Shown piece after piece: positions 33,853 through 41,081 of a DNA stretch of 64,000 nucleotides. The stretch is from Chitinophagaceae bacterium UBA2375 (GTDB lineage Bacteria > Bacteroidota > Bacteroidia > Chitinophagales > Chitinophagaceae). The notes beneath the pieces were generated by a model that saw only the letters and a program-made list of their open reading frames with translations, was not told where the DNA came from and did not search any database. The DNA lies in NCBI GenBank assembly GCA_002343985.1, contig DDTB01000023.1, positions 11,758 through 75,757 of the forward strand, read 5' to 3'. Made by a program: the position numbers and the translations under genes. Each line of letters begins with the position of its first letter. The first letter of the stretch is position 1.

Positions 33853-36735
33853 ATGAAGAATCGGATTATCTGGACGATCGTATGTAGTTTTTTTGCCCTA
33901 ACGGGCTTTTCCCAAACAGGCAGCATCAGGGCCATGCTGGTAGACAAAGAAAACCAATCGCGCATCAGCGGCGCCACCATTACCCTGAGGCTCGCCAGCG
34001 ACAGTTCACTGGTGGGTTCCACTGTATCAGACGCGCAAGGCCGCGTCAGCCTGAACAACCTTAACCCCGGCGAATACCGGATCAATATCAGCACCATCGG
34101 CTACCGTCAGTACGATGCCTTTGTCAGCATAGACGGCACGGAAAAAAGGCTTGGGCCCATACGTTTGGAAAAACAAGGCAAGGAACTTGCTGAAGTCACC
34201 GTGGTATCGCGCACCCCTCCCGTGGTACAAAAAGCGGACACGGCCCAGTTCAGCGCCAGCCAGTATAAAGTGAACCCCGATGCCAGTACGGAAGACCTGA
34301 TCAAAAAAATGCCCGGCATTACGGTTGACAGGGACGGAACCGTTACGGCACAAGGCGAACAGGTACGCAAACTCACCATTGACGGTAAAGATTTTTTTGG
34401 GGATGATGTAACGGCGGCGCTCAAAAACCTCCCATCGGAAGTGGTGGATAAGATCCAAGTGTTTGACAGGCTGAGCGACCAGGCCCAACTAACCGGCGTG
34501 GATGACGGCAACTCCCAGAAATCCATCAACATTGTAACCAAATCAGGCATCAGGAACAGCCAGTTTGGCCGGGCCTATGCCGGATACGGTACGGATGACC
34601 GGTATGCATTAGGCGGCAATATGAGCTTTTTTGAAAACAACCGACGCATTTCCATTGTAGCCAATTTTAATAATATCAACCAGCAAAATTTTGGATCACA
34701 GGACCTCCTGGGCGTAAATAATAACCGCGGTGGCGGAGGTGGCGGTCGTGGTGGTATGGGCGGTGGCCGCTGGGGCGGAGGTGGCGAAAACTTCCAGGTC
34801 GGCCAGTCGAACGGCATCAGCCGCACCAACGCTTTCGGCATCAACTTCAGCAATACCTGGAGCCCAAAAGTTACCTTAACCGGCAGTTACTTCTTCAACA
34901 ACAGCCGCAATACGAACGACGCGTTCAGCAATACAGAAACATTCGCGGCGAATAACAATAACCTGATCAGCACCCAAAACAGCATCAGCCGTACCGATAA
35001 TTTCAACCACCGCATCAACCTGAGGCTGGAGTATAAAATCGACTCAAACAATACCTTGTTCGTCATCCCAAGCCTCAACTTCCAAAACAACAATACCGAA
35101 AGCCTGTCGGCCATTGGAAGCCTGTTTAAAAGTGGCGACTCGGTGAACACGTCATTAACCAACGCCATTTCGGACCGTAAGGGGTATAACCTGAGGAACA
35201 ATATCCTCTTCCGCCATGCCTTCCGCAAAAAAGGGCGCAGCCTCTCGCTCGGCCTTAACACATCATTGACCAATAATACAAGCGAAAGCATTACCGATGC
35301 CCGTTTCCGTTTCTTTAATAACGGCGGCGTACAGGATTCGGTACAAAACCAGTTTTACGATAACCTCACCGATGGCTACAGCGTCGGGGGAAGTATCGCA
35401 TACACGGAACCGTTAGGTAAAAACTCGATGATCCAGATCGATTACAACCCAAGCATCCAAAAGAACAAAGCCGATCAGCAAACATTCCTGTTTGACGGAC
35501 AGAAATACGGCACGCTTGACACCGTATTGTCTAACAGGTTCAACAATACGGTAACCACGCATAACAGCGGCATCACTTACCGGTATAACCCAAGCCGCGA
35601 CGAGATGTTCGCCATAGGCCTGAATTATCAGAACTCAACCCTGGAAAGTGATCGTGTATTCCCTACCGTTAGCAACGTCAACCAGTCGTTCTCCAATTTC
35701 CTGCCCAATGCCATGTGGCGGAAGAAGATTTCGCAAACAAGCAGTTTCCGTTTGTTTTACCGCGCGTCTGTGAGTTTCCCCAATGTTTCGCAATTGCAGG
35801 ACGTGGTGAACCTGAGCAACCCGCTCCGCGTAAGCTCCGGTAACCCGCTGCTGGCGCAATCGTACACGCATTTCCTGGGTGGCCGCTGGATGTACACCAA
35901 TTCAAAAACAAGCCGTAGTTTCTTTGCCAACATATTCATGCAAACAACTGCAGATTATATTTCAAATGCCACTTACATCGCATCCGCTGACTCTACCATT
36001 CAACAGGGTATTGTGCTGAAAAAAGGTTCGCAACTGAGCAAGCCCGTTAACCTCAATGGCTACCGCAATGTGCGCACATTCCTTACGTACAGCATGCCGA
36101 TCAAACCCATCAAAACAACCATGAACCTGAACGCGGGTTTCACGTACAGCCGTTTGCCGGGTATGGTTAATTATGTAAAAACCATCACGGATAATTTTGT
36201 GTACAGCGGCGGCATTGTGCTGGCGAGCAATATCAGTGAGTATGTGGATTTCAACCTGAATTATTCCATCAATGTGAACCGGGCGAGGACAACGTCGAAC
36301 AGCACGGCTGACAATAATTTCAACCAGCAATCGGCCGGCATCATTGTAAATCTGCTGAACAAAAAAGGATGGTTTATTCAGAACGATGTGTCGAACCAAA
36401 CATTCAGCGGATTGAGCGGCGGACTGAATACCAGCTTCTGGTTGTGGAATGCGTCTGTCGGAAAAAAATTCCTGAAAAACCGCGCGGGCGAACTGAAGCT
36501 TTCCGTATTTGACTTATTAAAACAAAACCAAAGCATCAGCCGGACCATCACGGAAACCTATATCCAGGATAACCGGAGTGTGGTGTTGCAGCAGTATTTC
36601 ATGCTGACATTCACATACAACCTGAAAAATTTTGGCAAAGCGGCGAATAAACAATCAAACAGGGGTAATGATGCGGATGGCCCAACAAGGGGCGGAATGC
36701 CGGGGGCACCGGGCATGGGGCGTCCGGGTTTTTAA
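33853..36735 (+). CDS. Outer-membrane beta-barrel protein (TonB-dependent-like) with N-terminal carboxypeptidase-regulatory-like domain
   Basis: Signal peptide, EDLIKKMPGITVD plug motif, IDGKDFFG, terminal YFMLTFTYNL; Gly/Arg-rich insert at ~34726-34785. Confidence 0.88.
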   Translation: MKNRIIWTIVCSFFALTGFSQTGSIRAMLVDKENQSRISGATITLRLASDSSLVGSTVSDAQGRVSLNNLNPGEYRINISTIGYRQYDAFVSIDGTEKRLGPIRLEKQGKELAEVTVVSRTPPVVQKADTAQFSASQYKVNPDASTEDLIKKMPGITVDRDGTVTAQGEQVRKLTIDGKDFFGDDVTAALKNLPSEVVDKIQVFDRLSDQAQLTGVDDGNSQKSINIVTKSGIRNSQFGRAYAGYGTDDRYALGGNMSFFENNRRISIVANFNNINQQNFGSQDLLGVNNNRGGGGGGRGGMGGGRWGGGGENFQVGQSNGISRTNAFGINFSNTWSPKVTLTGSYFFNNSRNTNDAFSNTETFAANNNNLISTQNSISRTDNFNHRINLRLEYKIDSNNTLFVIPSLNFQNNNTESLSAIGSLFKSGDSVNTSLTNAISDRKGYNLRNNILFRHAFRKKGRSLSLGLNTSLTNNTSESITDARFRFFNNGGVQDSVQNQFYDNLTDGYSVGGSIAYTEPLGKNSMIQIDYNPSIQKNKADQQTFLFDGQKYGTLDTVLSNRFNNTVTTHNSGITYRYNPSRDEMFAIGLNYQNSTLESDRVFPTVSNVNQSFSNFLPNAMWRKKISQTSSFRLFYRASVSFPNVSQLQDVVNLSNPLRVSSGNPLLAQSYTHFLGGRWMYTNSKTSRSFFANIFMQTTADYISNATYIASADSTIQQGIVLKKGSQLSKPVNLNGYRNVRTFLTYSMPIKPIKTTMNLNAGFTYSRLPGMVNYVKTITDNFVYSGGIVLASNISEYVDFNLNYSINVNRARTTSNSTADNNFNQQSAGIIVNLLNKKGWFIQNDVSNQTFSGLSGGLNTSFWLWNASVGKKFLKNRAGELKLSVFDLLKQNQSISRTITETYIQDNRSVVLQQYFMLTFTYNLKNFGKAANKQSNRGNDADGPTRGGMPGAPGMGRPGF

Positions 36736-36765
36736 GTACTTTTGAGATGAACCATCAGCACTGTC

Positions 36766-37338
36766 TTGAACCAGTCGGAACTCATCTCCAAACTTAAAAA
36801 CGGCGAAGCCCAGGCATTCAACGAAATCGTGTCTTCTTACCAGGACATGATTTACAATACCGCCCTGAGCCTTTTGCAACAGGCACAGGAAGCGGAAGAC
36901 ATCACGCAGGACGTGTTTATTCAGCTTTACCACTCGATACAGGATTTCAGGGAAGAAGCGGCCTTAAGCACATGGTTGTATAAAGTGACGGTATCGAAAT
37001 CGATGGATGCGCTGCGTAAAAAACAGCGGGAGAAAAGGGGCGGATGGTGGAAACGGCTGACAGGCGCTGAAGCTACGGAAGAGGCCGTCAGTTTTCAGCA
37101 TCCCGGTGTGCTGGCCGAAAACAAAGAGAAATCTGAGGTACTCTGGAAAGCCATTAGTCAATTACCCGAATCGCAACGCGTGGCATTCACGTTGCAGAAA
37201 ATGGAAGGATTGAGTATGCAGGATATCGCGGAGGTGATGGAGAAATCAGTGGATTCTGTGGAATCATTGCTGGCAAGGGCCAGGAAAAACCTGAGGGATT
37301 ACCTGGCTGATTATTATGTAAAAAACAAACTGTCATGA
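36766..37338 (+). CDS. ECF RNA polymerase sigma factor
   Basis: AEDITQDVFI, STWLYKV, QLPESQR..FTL...EGLS..DIAEVM, SVESLLARARKNL; TTG start. Confidence 0.92.
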   Translation: MNQSELISKLKNGEAQAFNEIVSSYQDMIYNTALSLLQQAQEAEDITQDVFIQLYHSIQDFREEAALSTWLYKVTVSKSMDALRKKQREKRGGWWKRLTGAEATEEAVSFQHPGVLAENKEKSEVLWKAISQLPESQRVAFTLQKMEGLSMQDIAEVMEKSVDSVESLLARARKNLRDYLADYYVKNKLS

Positions 37339-37664
37339 ACAAGCAGATGCAGGATTGGATCAATGAAACCATGTCTGGTTTAGATGGCGCGCAAAGGGCA
37401 TCGGCCCCACCGTTTTTGATGACCCGTATCCGTGCCGGGCTCGCGAAAGCGCCGGTGAAAAGCGCCTGGGAATCACTATATGCCTTTGTGAGCAGGCCTA
37501 CCATTGCATTGGCCGGCATCCTCCTGGTGGTTACGGTTAACTTCCTGATCATCCTGCAAAAACAAAACCGCCAACAACAAGATGTTGTCAACACGCAAAC
37601 CGAACAGGTGGATGTAGCCACACAATATAATTTGATCAACGACATTGAATACCTCGCACCATGA
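37335..37664 (+). CDS. Single-TM putative anti-sigma factor
   Basis: ATGA overlap with the sigma gene; APPFLMTRI motif then one TM helix. Confidence 0.65.
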   Translation: MNKQMQDWINETMSGLDGAQRASAPPFLMTRIRAGLAKAPVKSAWESLYAFVSRPTIALAGILLVVTVNFLIILQKQNRQQQDVVNTQTEQVDVATQYNLINDIEYLAP

Positions 37665-38134
37665 ACAGTTCATCACGACATAAAGCGCTCCTGCTAACCA
37701 TCGCGGCCCTGTTGCTGACCAACCTGGTAACACTTTACTTTTACTCAAAACAGGAACCATGCGACGGCAAACAAATGCGCCAGGAAAGAAAAGGCCGCAT
37801 GCGGGAGTTCCTGCAACATGAAGTGGGTTTCACCGAAACGCAACTCAGCAGGTTCGACAGTATTTCAGATGCACAGATGAAAGAGATTGAACCCGAAATG
37901 CTGGCTTTCAGAAAATCAAGACGTCAAATAATGTCTGAACTGGGCAACAAGGCATTCAGCGATTCCGCAATTATTGATGCTGCCGGAAAACTGTCGGGTA
38001 ATCAAGAGGAAATGGAAATCCGCATGCTCCGGAATATGCGCGACTGGAGGGCCATTTGCACAGAAGAACAATTGCCGCGTTTTGATACCGGTTTTTATAA
38101 GGTCATGGGACGAAAAAAAGAACAAAATAAATAA
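37661..38134 (+). CDS. Spy/CpxP-like periplasmic helical protein (heavy-metal-sensor type)
   Basis: N-terminal TM, then helical LxxEVGFTETQ...CTEEQLPRFD; ATGA overlap. Confidence 0.7.
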   Translation: MNSSSRHKALLLTIAALLLTNLVTLYFYSKQEPCDGKQMRQERKGRMREFLQHEVGFTETQLSRFDSISDAQMKEIEPEMLAFRKSRRQIMSELGNKAFSDSAIIDAAGKLSGNQEEMEIRMLRNMRDWRAICTEEQLPRFDTGFYKVMGRKKEQNK

Positions 38135-38192: not shown

Positions 38193-39662
38193 TTAGATCA
38201 TACCTTTCCAACGCAGGAAGCCTGCAGACCCAATCATCAATGCACTCACCCAGGCCATCATTCCCGCGCCCTGGCCTTCAGTTTCCGTTTCATTTTTCAA
38301 TTCATCCGCTACATGGGCATACGCTATTTCGGGTTCATGCCGTGCAGCATCCGAACTCAATAAATCCTTTTGCCAGTTGTGCATATTGGTGCCCGTAAGC
38401 GATAAAAGTTGCCTGAGTTCTTTTTTGCGGCGCGCCTTTAACTCACGAAGGTATGTGCGGCCCTCATCACAACTGAGGTCGCCGTTGGCAGGATGCGTCA
38501 CAATATACCTTGCCTGGTAATGATTACGGTTGGGTGTAACCTGGAATGCAAGGTCTTGTGGAAAATCATTCCGGTTATAACGGACATGCATACGCGTAAA
38601 AAATGTCTGGTTGTTCCCATCGGGTAAATCCATATCAGGATCGCTGTAATCTGACCAGTCGGCCTGCTTCAGCCACCAGGCGCCGGCGGTGAGCAGCTCC
38701 TGTTGTGTGGGCGGGTTTCCCACGCAGGGATCGCATTTCATGGGATTGATTGGCGTAATATCCCAGGCATATTCCAGGAAAGCCAGGTTGCGGCCTTCAT
38801 TGTTCCATTGATGCTGAAAAAGATTCGAGTAAAAAGCGCCGAAGTTCTTTTTCACAAACAAGGGAATATTCCTGTCGCTCGGGATATCGATGTTCCGGTA
38901 ATTTGTGCACTCGATGCGTCCTCGGCGCGTAAGCCCGTAAATGACCAGGTCCTGGTCGCCATCGGCATTGGCCATACCCAGGCGGATGGGCAGGATGAAT
39001 TTTTCGGAAGCAAAACTGATTTGGATGGGCCGCAGGAAACCGTTGTTCAGCGCAGTGGCTTGTTTGGGGTTGACCTTCGCGACAAAAAATTTCAGGTTTG
39101 ATTTGATATAAGGCTCGAGCACTTCTTCGGCCGACTCGGGAATTTTATAACCATTATCACTGAGCCATCGTTGCAGGCCGGAGCTCTCTTTTGCTCCAAG
39201 GATCAGTATATCGTACTCGCCCACGAGGTATTGCGCTTCGATTGTCACGCCATACCCTCTTGCAGTGGGTGCGGCTTTTGGAGATTTCATGACTACAGAT
39301 TCCTGTACAGACATCAAATCATCTTTTTCATATACCCTGGGCATGCATGGATTGACATCGTAATACTCAACCAAACGCGGGGAAGAATAATCGTTAAGGC
39401 GCTGGAAAATGCCCGGTTCAACGACGCGGATATCTTTTTTCTGCAACAACACGGGGACGGGTATCACCATGGCGAAATCGCGGATGTTTCCTTTAAAATC
39501 GTTGTACATGGTGACCACCGTTTTTCGTCCGTCACGGGCAAGGATCACCTGCGAGGTTTTGTTGGAAAGGGTACCGCTGGCCTTGCTGACGTAAAAACCG
39601 CAGAAGGCAAAAAGGGATGTTGAGCAGGACACTAAAATGCCTGCCATGAGGATTTTCTTCAT
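38193..39662 (-). CDS. DUF2330-family exported protein
   Basis: AFCGFYV after the signal, VTMYNDFKG..DFAMVIPVP, SPRLVEYYD.NPC, VGEYDILIL, PIRLGMANA; hydrophobic C-terminal tail. Confidence 0.85.
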   Translation of the reverse strand: MKKILMAGILVSCSTSLFAFCGFYVSKASGTLSNKTSQVILARDGRKTVVTMYNDFKGNIRDFAMVIPVPVLLQKKDIRVVEPGIFQRLNDYSSPRLVEYYDVNPCMPRVYEKDDLMSVQESVVMKSPKAAPTARGYGVTIEAQYLVGEYDILILGAKESSGLQRWLSDNGYKIPESAEEVLEPYIKSNLKFFVAKVNPKQATALNNGFLRPIQISFASEKFILPIRLGMANADGDQDLVIYGLTRRGRIECTNYRNIDIPSDRNIPLFVKKNFGAFYSNLFQHQWNNEGRNLAFLEYAWDITPINPMKCDPCVGNPPTQQELLTAGAWWLKQADWSDYSDPDMDLPDGNNQTFFTRMHVRYNRNDFPQDLAFQVTPNRNHYQARYIVTHPANGDLSCDEGRTYLRELKARRKKELRQLLSLTGTNMHNWQKDLLSSDAARHEPEIAYAHVADELKNETETEGQGAGMMAWVSALMIGSAGFLRWKGMI

Positions 39663-39672
39663 ACTGATTGAT

Positions 39673-40560
39673 TTAATGATGAATATGTGCGTGTACATGT
39701 TGTACGGGTAATCTGTTCCACTGAAAACGGCTTGACCTGCAAATCATGTCGAATAAAGGCACAAACGGTTGCAGCAATACCAATGCCAGTACCGGTGCGC
39801 CATTGATGTATTCAAAACTATGCAGCCAGAAACCCAGGAGCCCAACCATAATGCCCCATATGATGCGGGCAATGGGGTGATCGGGCGTGGTTTTTGGATC
39901 GGATATCATGAAGAATGAAAAAACGAGTAGGGTGCCCGTACTGACAGACTGGTAAAAGAAATCGGAAGGCCATTGCAGGTACAATACCTGGCGGATAAAT
40001 GAAGCCGCGATATAAGTAAAGAGAAAAGCGAGGCTGATATCGAGTTTCTGTACCCTGGTAACGACAATAATGCCGAGGATGAGCGCGCCAGAAAATTGCA
40101 CAAATCCATTTCCCCACTGACCCGGGTTAACCCAGGCTTCGCCGGTTAACCAAACAGCGGCTACAATGCCCAGTGCCGAGGGATTGAAGATATGTTTGCC
40201 CCTTATCCGGATAAAATACTTTGCGGTGATGCCCAGCATCGCGGCTGCAATGGCGATGGTTGTATGGTTGGTTTGCAGGAACAGGCATAAACCCATGGCC
40301 GTGATCAGCGCAGAAGGTAATCCCGGCAAGGTAAGCTTCCACCAGCGCGCTTCCCAGGGCTTTGCGATATGCTTCCTGAGCCATGCTTCGCAGATCAATT
40401 GCGTGATGATTGCCGTAGCGATATAAACTGCGTATAACCATGACCGTTGTGCCCATTCGAGGTAAACAGTGCCGTAGATAAGGAAGATCGACTGAAATAA
40501 AACCTGGAAGATCCGGGCATCGGGTGTAAAGGGCTGCATAAAAAACAGTTGGTTTCTCAT
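39673..40560 (-). CDS. RnfD/NqrB-like membrane protein (stand-alone)
   Basis: DARIFQ, SALIT, GKHIFNPSALG, FFMISDPKTTP; start could be 40539-40599. Confidence 0.8.
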   Translation of the reverse strand: MRNQLFFMQPFTPDARIFQVLFQSIFLIYGTVYLEWAQRSWLYAVYIATAIITQLICEAWLRKHIAKPWEARWWKLTLPGLPSALITAMGLCLFLQTNHTTIAIAAAMLGITAKYFIRIRGKHIFNPSALGIVAAVWLTGEAWVNPGQWGNGFVQFSGALILGIIVVTRVQKLDISLAFLFTYIAASFIRQVLYLQWPSDFFYQSVSTGTLLVFSFFMISDPKTTPDHPIARIIWGIMVGLLGFWLHSFEYINGAPVLALVLLQPFVPLFDMICRSSRFQWNRLPVQHVHAHIHH

Positions 40561-40688
40561 GAGATGCAGGCCTGATGGAATTACACATGGATGATTCACA
40601 ATAAATTGTTAATAAGAATGGATGAGCGGTTTGAAAAAACAGCTTACCATTTGTACATTGAATCATCTTTTCACCAAACAATCAACAC

Positions 40689-41081
40689 ATGAAACATGCC
40701 ATCAGCTGGTTCGAAATCCCTGCCACTGACCTGGAAAGGGCCCAGCGATTTTACGAAACCATTTTAGGCGGGCCATTATTCAATATGGACATGCCGAATA
40801 TCAAAATGAGGGTGCTGCCATCAGACCAGGATCCCGATGCCGTTGGCGGCGCGGTGGTGGACAGCGGTGGATTTCACCAGCCTTCAGCCACGCATGGCCC
40901 ATTGATTTACCTGAACGCCAATCCTGACGTACAAATAATCCTGGACCGCGTGGAAGCAGCGGGCGGATCAATATTGGTTCCTAAAACAGAAATAAGCCCG
41001 GAAATTGGCTTTATGGGTGTCATCATTGATTCGGAAGGAAACAGGATTGGCCTGCACGCTGTTCCTGCTTCCGGAGCATAA
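40689..41081 (+). CDS. VOC/glyoxalase family protein
   Basis: ISWFEIPATDLERAQRFY, DSEGNRIGLH. Confidence 0.9.
   Translation: MKHAISWFEIPATDLERAQRFYETILGGPLFNMDMPNIKMRVLPSDQDPDAVGGAVVDSGGFHQPSATHGPLIYLNANPDVQIILDRVEAAGGSILVPKTEISPEIGFMGVIIDSEGNRIGLHAVPASGA

Follow-up and report, generated by a model that had tools for sequence, protein, structure and literature searches.

A two-gene unit lies on the minus strand of a 64,000-nucleotide stretch of the genome of Chitinophagaceae bacterium UBA2375 (contig DDTB01000023.1), here called the window. Its genes, which together fill positions 38193-40599, couple a membrane protein of the RnfD/NqrB family with an exported protein of the DUF2330 family. 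RnfD and NqrB carry flavin mononucleotide (FMN) covalently on a threonine and form the Na+/H+ path in six-subunit complexes; to our knowledge, no role is known for them other than that of flavin-bearing subunits in such ion pumps. In the pair described here, the same fold has been stripped of its covalent flavin and works with a single exported partner. The two proteins constitute one self-contained module of the inner membrane and periplasm, encoded as neighbors or as a fusion in hundreds of bacteria, and this widespread envelope module is described in no paper of the literature searched.

The unit has the layout described in an earlier sequence-only reading of the window, namely, two genes with a 10-bp gap and a terminator (Table 1); the terminator hairpin is shared with a convergent gene that ends at 38134. 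The open reading frame of the RnfD-like protein extends up to a GTG at 40599 (39673-40599) and contains candidate ATG starts at 40560 (295 amino acids) and 40539. Homologues begin about 6-8 residues ahead of the conserved sequence DARxFQ, and one relative, 93% identical, has 295 amino acids. Thus, the ATG at 40560 (or at 40539) is the likelier start, and the GTG at 40599 probably makes the protein too long. The DUF2330 gene starts with the ATG at 39662 and encodes the N-terminus MKKIL.

Table 1. Features of the pair. Positions are those of the window; residues are those of the encoded protein. The last seven rows list positions of NqrB, in Vibrio cholerae numbering carried over via a Bacteroidota NqrB onto the RnfD/NqrB alignment.
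Feature	Position	Strand	Residues	Basis or remark
RnfD/NqrB-like membrane protein, candidate flavin-less UnbU type, 295 amino acids	39673..40560	-		PF03116, AF2, Foldseek
GKHIFNP motif	40180..40200	-	121-127	invariant in family alignment, common to UnbV-linked subfamily
Short periplasmic loop TGEAWVNPGQW	40117..40149	-	138-148	at site of canonical flavinylated-threonine loop
FFMISDPKTTP motif	39883..39915	-	216-226	alignments
Intergenic spacer ATCAATCAGT, exactly 10 bp	39663..39672	-		from TAA of RnfD-like gene to ATG of DUF2330 gene
DUF2330 protein, 489 amino acids: Sec signal peptide, periplasmic domain, C-terminal transmembrane tail	38193..39662	-		PF10092
Signal peptide	39606..39662	-	1-19	predicted signal-peptidase I site LFA/F
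FCGFY	39591..39605	-	20-24	invariant mature N-terminus, Cys at mature position 2
Hypervariable loop	39249..39344	-	107-138	directly past invariant Cys106
CDPC motif (C310, C313)	38724..38735	-		invariant
C-terminal hydrophobic tail, RWKG end	38196..38267	-	~466-489	hydropathy
Intrinsic terminator hairpin, 11-bp stem then T-rich tail	38165-38137	-		ends two-gene unit
Counterpart of NqrB T162			T/S87	stand-alone family
Counterpart of NqrB G198 (backbone)			G121	mostly kept
Counterpart of NqrB N200			H123	invariant in stand-alone family and UnbV-linked subfamily
Counterpart of NqrB N203			N126	invariant
Counterpart of NqrB F342 (backbone)			F217	
Counterpart of NqrB D346			D221	invariant
Counterpart of NqrB D397			D271	

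A membrane protein with the RnfD/NqrB fold and no FMN loop

Profile hidden Markov models place both proteins in the families that the sequence-only reading had named, the membrane protein by a partial match. Its match to PF03116 (NQR2_RnfD_RnfE) has an E value of 1.3e-14 and is confined to residues 173-292, which align with profile positions 178-295; for canonical RnfD and NqrB proteins from this class, the match covers positions 1-296, with E values of 1e-95 to 1e-120. Stand-alone RnfD-like proteins in general align only with profile positions ~165-295, at E values of 1e-8 to 1e-14, and the distribution of Pfam scores is bimodal. With the NCBIfam rnfD and nqrB models, the membrane protein scores far under the cut-offs.

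An AF2 model of the protein (predicted local distance difference test [pLDDT] 80.9; predicted template-modeling score [pTM] 0.78) contains approximately 10 transmembrane helices. When it was compared with the PDB using Foldseek, the best 15 matches were all RnfD/NqrB chains (probability 1.0, TMq 0.53-0.66), headed by the RnfD chains 8rbq_D, 9eri_D, and 7zc6_D (TMq 0.62-0.66), and urea transporters and Rh/Amt proteins came next as weak fold matches. As modeled, the membrane half thus adopts the RnfD/NqrB fold with 10 helices. Its last 12 codons (39673-39710) encode a His-rich cytoplasmic C-terminus, QHVHAHIHH, which among the aligned sequences is shared only with the 85%-identical relative P0002 (THSHAHIHH) and could be a lineage-specific metal-binding tail.

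The segment that bears the covalent flavin is missing. The stand-alone family was aligned (MAFFT) with six canonical proteins, three RnfD and three NqrB, encoded by genomes belonging to this class. All six exhibit a loop of 50-80 residues between the FNPA helix and the GSxGE motif, and this loop contains VDGx(T/S)GAT in five of them and TAAT in the sixth. A clean gap replaces the whole FMN-threonine loop in the stand-alone family. The sequence-only reading was therefore right in noting the loss of the FMN loop and its (S/T)GAT motif, as well as the presence of the two family motifs GKHIFNP and FFMISDPKTTP. No [ST]G[AS][ST] motif occurs in either protein of the pair, and this includes a flavinylation motif in DUF2330.

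The DUF2330 partner

The partner protein matches PF10092 (DUF2330) with an E value of 2.2e-75 and 253.8 bits, compared to a cut-off of 24.7, over profile positions 5-278 of 279. The sequence-only reading had suggested export by a signal peptide or, possibly, an LVS-C lipobox. The former stands, with a signal-peptidase I site ahead of FCGFY: position -1 is Ala or Ser and position -3 aliphatic in all DUF2330 homologues, and AQA, AGA, or AHA precedes FCGFY in fusion proteins from different phyla. The latter was rejected, because the other homologues have no cysteine at all ahead of FCGFY; the LVSC sequence with its Cys13 is found only in the window protein and its nearest relative, and the residue before Cys21 is Phe.

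FCGFY is invariant across the window protein and Bacteroidota, Binataceae-type (high-GC), and cyanobacterial-type sequences. So are five cysteines (C21, C106, C310, C313, and C398) and the motifs PVP, PRLxEYxD, NYR, and TRxHxRY. Among the spaced cysteines singled out in the sequence-only reading, those of FCGF, NPC, CDPC, and LSC belong to this invariant set, whereas that of IEC (C252) varies across phyla. The C-terminal hydrophobic tail of that reading is likewise present, with A480, G481, W485, K486, and G487 invariant in an alignment of DUF2330 proteins, but it is not a general feature of the family, being absent from the high-GC and cyanobacterial-type forms. We regard it as a plain membrane anchor of the Bacteroidota clade. 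A function as a sorting signal was considered and rejected, given that no NCBIfam sorting-domain model matches and that the tail is absent outside Bacteroidota.

No PDB structure is related to DUF2330 by sequence or profile search, and the name "DUF2330" is mentioned in no paper of the literature searched. A Foldseek search of the PDB and BFVD with a model of a natural fusion protein returned matches to the membrane half only; the DUF2330 half was modeled poorly (pLDDT ~60-75). In contrast to most of the domain, where column entropy does not exceed 0.5 bits, the single hypervariable loop that follows Cys106 (mature positions 88-119) reaches 2.1-2.5 bits, and the corresponding segment in the model of the fusion protein has a pLDDT below 50.

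An invariant cysteine at mature position 2 and one disordered loop are reminiscent of the baculovirus inhibitor p35 (MEROPS I50), which works through C2 in concert with a reactive loop that is cleaved at D87 (PMC7863939), and in which the flexible loop likewise lies near residues 87-120. By this analogy, DUF2330 would serve as bait in the periplasm: once a protease has cut its variable loop, the cysteine at mature position 2 would capture an acyl intermediate as a thioester, while the membrane partner anchors the trap or reports its use. Tandem extra copies of DUF2330 in some genomes would suit such a device. We nevertheless consider it improbable: the DUF2330 half, poorly modeled as it is, has no Foldseek match in the PDB or BFVD; the Pfam P35 profile (PF02331) has no match in the genome at E values up to 10; the variable loop may be merely unconstrained; and a protease trap leaves nothing to do for the RnfD-fold partner, which is strictly coupled to DUF2330 and conserves a polar site in its interior. 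The baculovirus protein itself is cytosolic, lacks a membrane partner, and has no sequence similarity to DUF2330. A more specific version, in which DUF2330 acts as a bacterial p35-type suicide trap on a channel-like RnfD-fold protein and the trapping event is coupled to the membrane, for example, via the opening or closing of an ion path, is a long shot. If true, it would constitute both a new envelope defense or sensing device and a bacterial relative of an insect-virus inhibitor.

Pairing and fusion across bacteria

The two genes are constantly associated. Among 301 genomes sampled across the phylum, DUF2330 is found in four, namely, the source genome and all three genomes sampled from one other family; it occurs in none of the 16 other genomes of the source's family and none of the three of its genus. 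A profile of the RnfD-like family produces strong matches (E <1e-60) in exactly these four genomes, and in each of them the RnfD-like gene lies directly upstream of the DUF2330 gene on the same strand. Co-occurrence, on which the sequence-only reading had made its proposal depend, extends far beyond this sample. Considering the best 80 DUF2330 loci in contigs representing one genome per species, 75 have enough upstream DNA to be informative, and the pair is present in every one of the 75, as split genes in 54 and fused in one frame in 21. A further 80 loci from metagenomes, retrieved with non-Bacteroidota fusions and ranging from 34 to 72% GC, comprise 34 fused and 32 split pairs, the rest being cut by contig ends or by the open reading frame filter.

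Searches at larger scale gave a similar picture. Among 1.84 billion representatives, 2912 relatives of the membrane protein were found at an E value of 0.001 or better, and DUF2330 resides in the same chain in 10 of the best 150, which are all ten of the long matches checked. With a fusion protein as the query, 119 of the best 120 clusters at 90% identity carry both Pfam domains in chains of 775-810 amino acids, several of them encoded on megabase contigs. According to source names, there are fusion clusters from Candidatus Binataceae and from a cyanobacterial metagenome-assembled genome. Each of two collection scans extended to 600 stretches, more than 500 of which encode a relative. One candidate, P0125 (782 amino acids), was rejected as a natural RnfD-DUF2330 fusion, since two DUF2330 genes in tandem have been read through to yield it. 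Extra tandem copies of DUF2330 beside a single RnfD-like gene were observed in several places (G087:C196:21506-24954, L100:776-4292, L127:7914-11505, P0125, and P0403), and gene calling turned some of them into read-through products with lengths of 782 and 1342 amino acids.

The fusions are also informative about topology. In all of them, the two halves are separated by a hydrophobic stretch and a signal-peptidase site of the AxA type, with FCGFY directly after it. The membrane half must therefore end on the cytoplasmic side, and DUF2330 must lie outside; in the split form, the equivalent site, LFA/FCGF, follows an ordinary signal peptide. Given that the halves are always adjacent and have been joined into one polypeptide in many lineages, a physical complex between them is well supported, and gene fusions of this kind are unusually firm evidence for one. 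No third gene is conserved beside the pair across 160 loci, the next commonest neighbor cluster in the metagenome set being a generic histidine kinase at 7 of 80 loci, and so the module is self-contained.

Independence from Rnf, Nqr, and ApbE

The source genome (2.9 Mb in 35 contigs, 100% complete) contains a single match to PF03116, which is the window gene itself. Neither PF02508 (RnfA/E, NqrD/E) nor PF04205 (the FMN_bind domain of RnfG/NqrC) has a match anywhere in this genome. Thus, the statement of the sequence-only reading that the 64-kb window harbors no other rnf or nqr genes is confirmed, and the split rnf/nqr set elsewhere in the genome that would have spoken against its proposal does not exist. 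Canonical NqrB or RnfD is encoded in roughly 18 of 60 other genomes of the class sample; the source genome has neither. A link of the pair to ApbE was also rejected, the sole ApbE gene being located on another contig. That gene (G000:C17:119202-123047) is flanked by two thioredoxin-like genes and by one for DUF3570, though the genome encodes no FMN_bind protein, and looks like part of a separate flavinylation-linked cluster. It is firm that the membrane protein and its periplasmic partner form an obligate two-part module, and that this module is independent of Rnf, Nqr, and ApbE.

These observations bear on the simplest alternative, that the membrane protein is the leftover of a degenerate Rnf or Nqr operon, or that the two genes are neighbors by chance. 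The partial PF03116 match is what such decay might leave behind. However, neither gene is broken and both show strong conservation; every informative locus has them side by side or fused, whatever its GC content within a wide range; and no other rnf or nqr remains exist in the genome, so that this explanation is effectively refuted.

The buried polar site and the function of the module

In NqrB, riboflavin is hydrogen-bonded by T162, G198, N200, N203, A205, F342, and D346 (Hau et al., PMC10643135, Extended Data Fig. 6), and N200, N203, and D346 are required for riboflavin binding (Tuz et al., PMC9293633). According to the correspondence of residues in Table 1, the stand-alone family has largely retained the cytoplasm-proximal riboflavin site and has lost the periplasm-proximal covalent FMN. 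Retention of the riboflavin site is suggestive rather than proof, because the same residues are core motifs of the fold.

The sequence-only reading infers that the ion-conducting core has been repurposed, with DUF2330 as a redox or ligand-binding partner, and both points stay at the level of inference here. DUF2330 itself is exported by a Sec signal peptide with a predicted cut just ahead of FCGFY and, in the Bacteroidota lineage, is tethered to the membrane by its C-terminal helix. Our preferred, if tentative, reading of the chemistry of the module is that of a small relay, linked to a flavin or to quinone, that serves a thiol protein in the periplasm. The membrane half would bind a noncovalent flavin or exchange electrons with the quinone pool, and it would pass electrons through the membrane to the DUF2330 cysteines or take them up from there; the membrane-proximal N-terminus of DUF2330 would sit where the FMN loop has been lost. 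In its logic, such a relay would resemble DsbB or VKOR acting with thioredoxin-like proteins, as well as the published two-subunit Nqr/Rnf-like systems. If electron transfer does take place, the pair would provide a minimal electron route between the quinone pool and periplasmic thiols.

Several observations weigh against a thiol-redox relay. The membrane half has no conserved cysteine in the family alignment and no cytoplasmic domain for electron input: it ends approximately 20 residues past its last helix without the PF00175 NAD-binding domain that published Nqr/Rnf-like systems possess. DUF2330 has no recognizable redox fold, and the sister subfamily of the membrane protein pairs with FG-GAP/UnbV propellers that have no known redox role. 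The kept residues of the buried site are the family motifs of two half-helices and could have a structural or ion-binding function instead of holding a flavin. Finally, a co-fold by way of the natural fusion P0243 (64 fusion sequences) is poor (pLDDT 64.6, pTM 0.42), and hence no interface can be read from it.

Some of the same observations would fit a channel or transporter, in which the trimmed membrane protein conducts Na+, H+, or a small solute while DUF2330 gates it, senses for it, or acts enzymatically on what is transported, and no electrons are involved. The RnfD/NqrB fold is channel-like and has kinship with urea and ammonium channels, with urea transporters and Rh/Amt proteins as the next, if weak, fold matches of the membrane protein; an electron-input domain is missing; and the sister proteins are paired with non-redox propellers. 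Furthermore, the NqrB counterparts of D221 and D271, namely, D346 and D397, are acidic residues that mutagenesis has reportedly tied to Na+ handling. The D346 pocket was formerly proposed as the sodium entry site (PMC9293633). We rank this alternative second, as unlikely. Neither transport-related genes nor regulators are conserved near the pair, the five invariant cysteines and invariant N-terminus of DUF2330 seem more than a gate needs, and conduction in NqrB itself is driven by redox changes.

Genomic neighborhood

In the window, the pair is accompanied by genes for an outer-membrane barrel, an extracytoplasmic function (ECF) sigma factor, an anti-sigma factor, a Metal_resist protein, a glyoxalase, and DUF proteins. 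A plus-strand block at 33853-38134 converges on the pair and encodes the barrel (OMP_b-brl_3 and CarboxypepD_reg), the ECF sigma factor, the anti-sigma factor, and the periplasmic Metal_resist/LTXXQ protein. On the other side, a gene of the glyoxalase/bleomycin-resistance type (40689-41081) diverges from the pair at a distance of ~130 bp. Many of these neighbors recur among the 80 Chitinophagaceae-type loci: the barrel, ECF sigma, and Metal_resist/LTXXQ genes at 32-35 of them, the glyoxalase at 22, and DUF1801 at 17. A short anti-sigma factor, which does not cluster with the window copy, probably stands beside the pair at 26 of the 80.

The flanking genes do not recur in other lineages, and their recurrence is therefore read as lineage synteny; that of the glyoxalase is probably synteny only. 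In a genome of the same genus (G183:C19:121500-132000), the same block of barrel, sigma, anti-sigma, and Spy-like genes is followed by recA and a homocysteine methyltransferase gene instead of the pair. With recA at its place in so close a relative, the pair is best viewed as an accessory trait within the genus.

Comparison with known systems

With RnfD/RsxD and NqrB, the stand-alone protein shares the fold, the half-helix motifs xxFNP(A/S) and (T/S)DPxT, most positions of the riboflavin site, and the C-terminal PLxD aspartate. It differs from them in lacking the 50-80-residue periplasmic loop with the ApbE-flavinylated threonine, in its shorter N-terminal region, in the invariant His that replaces N200, and in the absence of other Rnf or Nqr subunit genes nearby or elsewhere in the genome.

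Two-subunit "Nqr/Rnf-like" complexes, reportedly described by Meheust et al. in 2021, offer a partial precedent. Their NqrB/RnfD-like subunit is threonine-less, and an NqrC/RnfG-like flavoprotein has been modeled as docking at the FMN site (Huang et al., bioRxiv 10.1101/2024.03.13.584918). In both systems, a stand-alone threonine-less membrane subunit is combined with one membrane-anchored extracytosolic partner. The published systems, however, possess a fused cytosolic PF00175 NAD-binding domain that the window protein lacks, and their partner is an FMN-binding, ApbE-flavinylated protein of the NqrC/RnfG type, whereas here it is DUF2330 in a genome without FMN_bind.

DsbB and VKOR are comparable as a mechanistic analogy only, in that a small quinone-linked membrane protein works for a CxxC protein of the periplasm; fusion to the partner, as seen for DUF2330, is common for bacterial VKOR. 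There is no homology between these proteins and the pair. Unlike the RnfD-like protein, in which no cysteine pair is conserved, DsbB and VKOR use cysteine pairs of their own, and their partners are thioredoxin-like, which DUF2330 is not by the searches run.

A further parallel is UnbU/UnbV. Several close homologues of the membrane protein are named "enediyne biosynthesis protein E5" by JGI, and comparison with UnbV-linked proteins makes the window protein a candidate member of a large, already named, flavin-less clade, UnbU (E5), rather than an isolated oddity, with sister proteins that pair with UnbV-type propellers. Weaker RnfD-like matches occur in 15 other genomes of the phylum sample, and in all four that were inspected they follow a gene for an FG-GAP/UnbV_ASPIC protein of ~600 amino acids. 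These orphan UnbV/UnbU-type pairs of Bacteroidota (L007:6019-8671, L008:3990-6623, L009:4138-6827, and L011:5946-8758) have no polyketide synthase in their inspected flanks.

In enediyne producers, E5 belongs to a conserved E3/E4/E5/E/E10 cassette (PMC5181780), and the names of the close homologues raise the prospect that the window protein processes or exports a polyketide-type metabolite, as is assumed for UnbU. This we disfavor as very improbable: the window holds no polyketide synthase, E3, E4, or E10-type genes near the pair, the surroundings of 160 related loci show no conservation of such a gene, and DUF2330 takes the place of UnbV as partner.

What unites the two subfamilies is the strict pairing of their membrane protein with one that is exported, together with the common invariants K, HxxNP, QWG, and FFMxxDP. 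They are set apart by their periplasmic loops, by the absence of polyketide genes near the window pair, and by the partner, an upstream FG-GAP/UnbV_ASPIC propeller in one case and a downstream DUF2330 protein in the other. Our literature search returned nothing useful on UnbU/UnbV, and the pair described here could help to explain this sister system of the enediyne antibiotic pathways.

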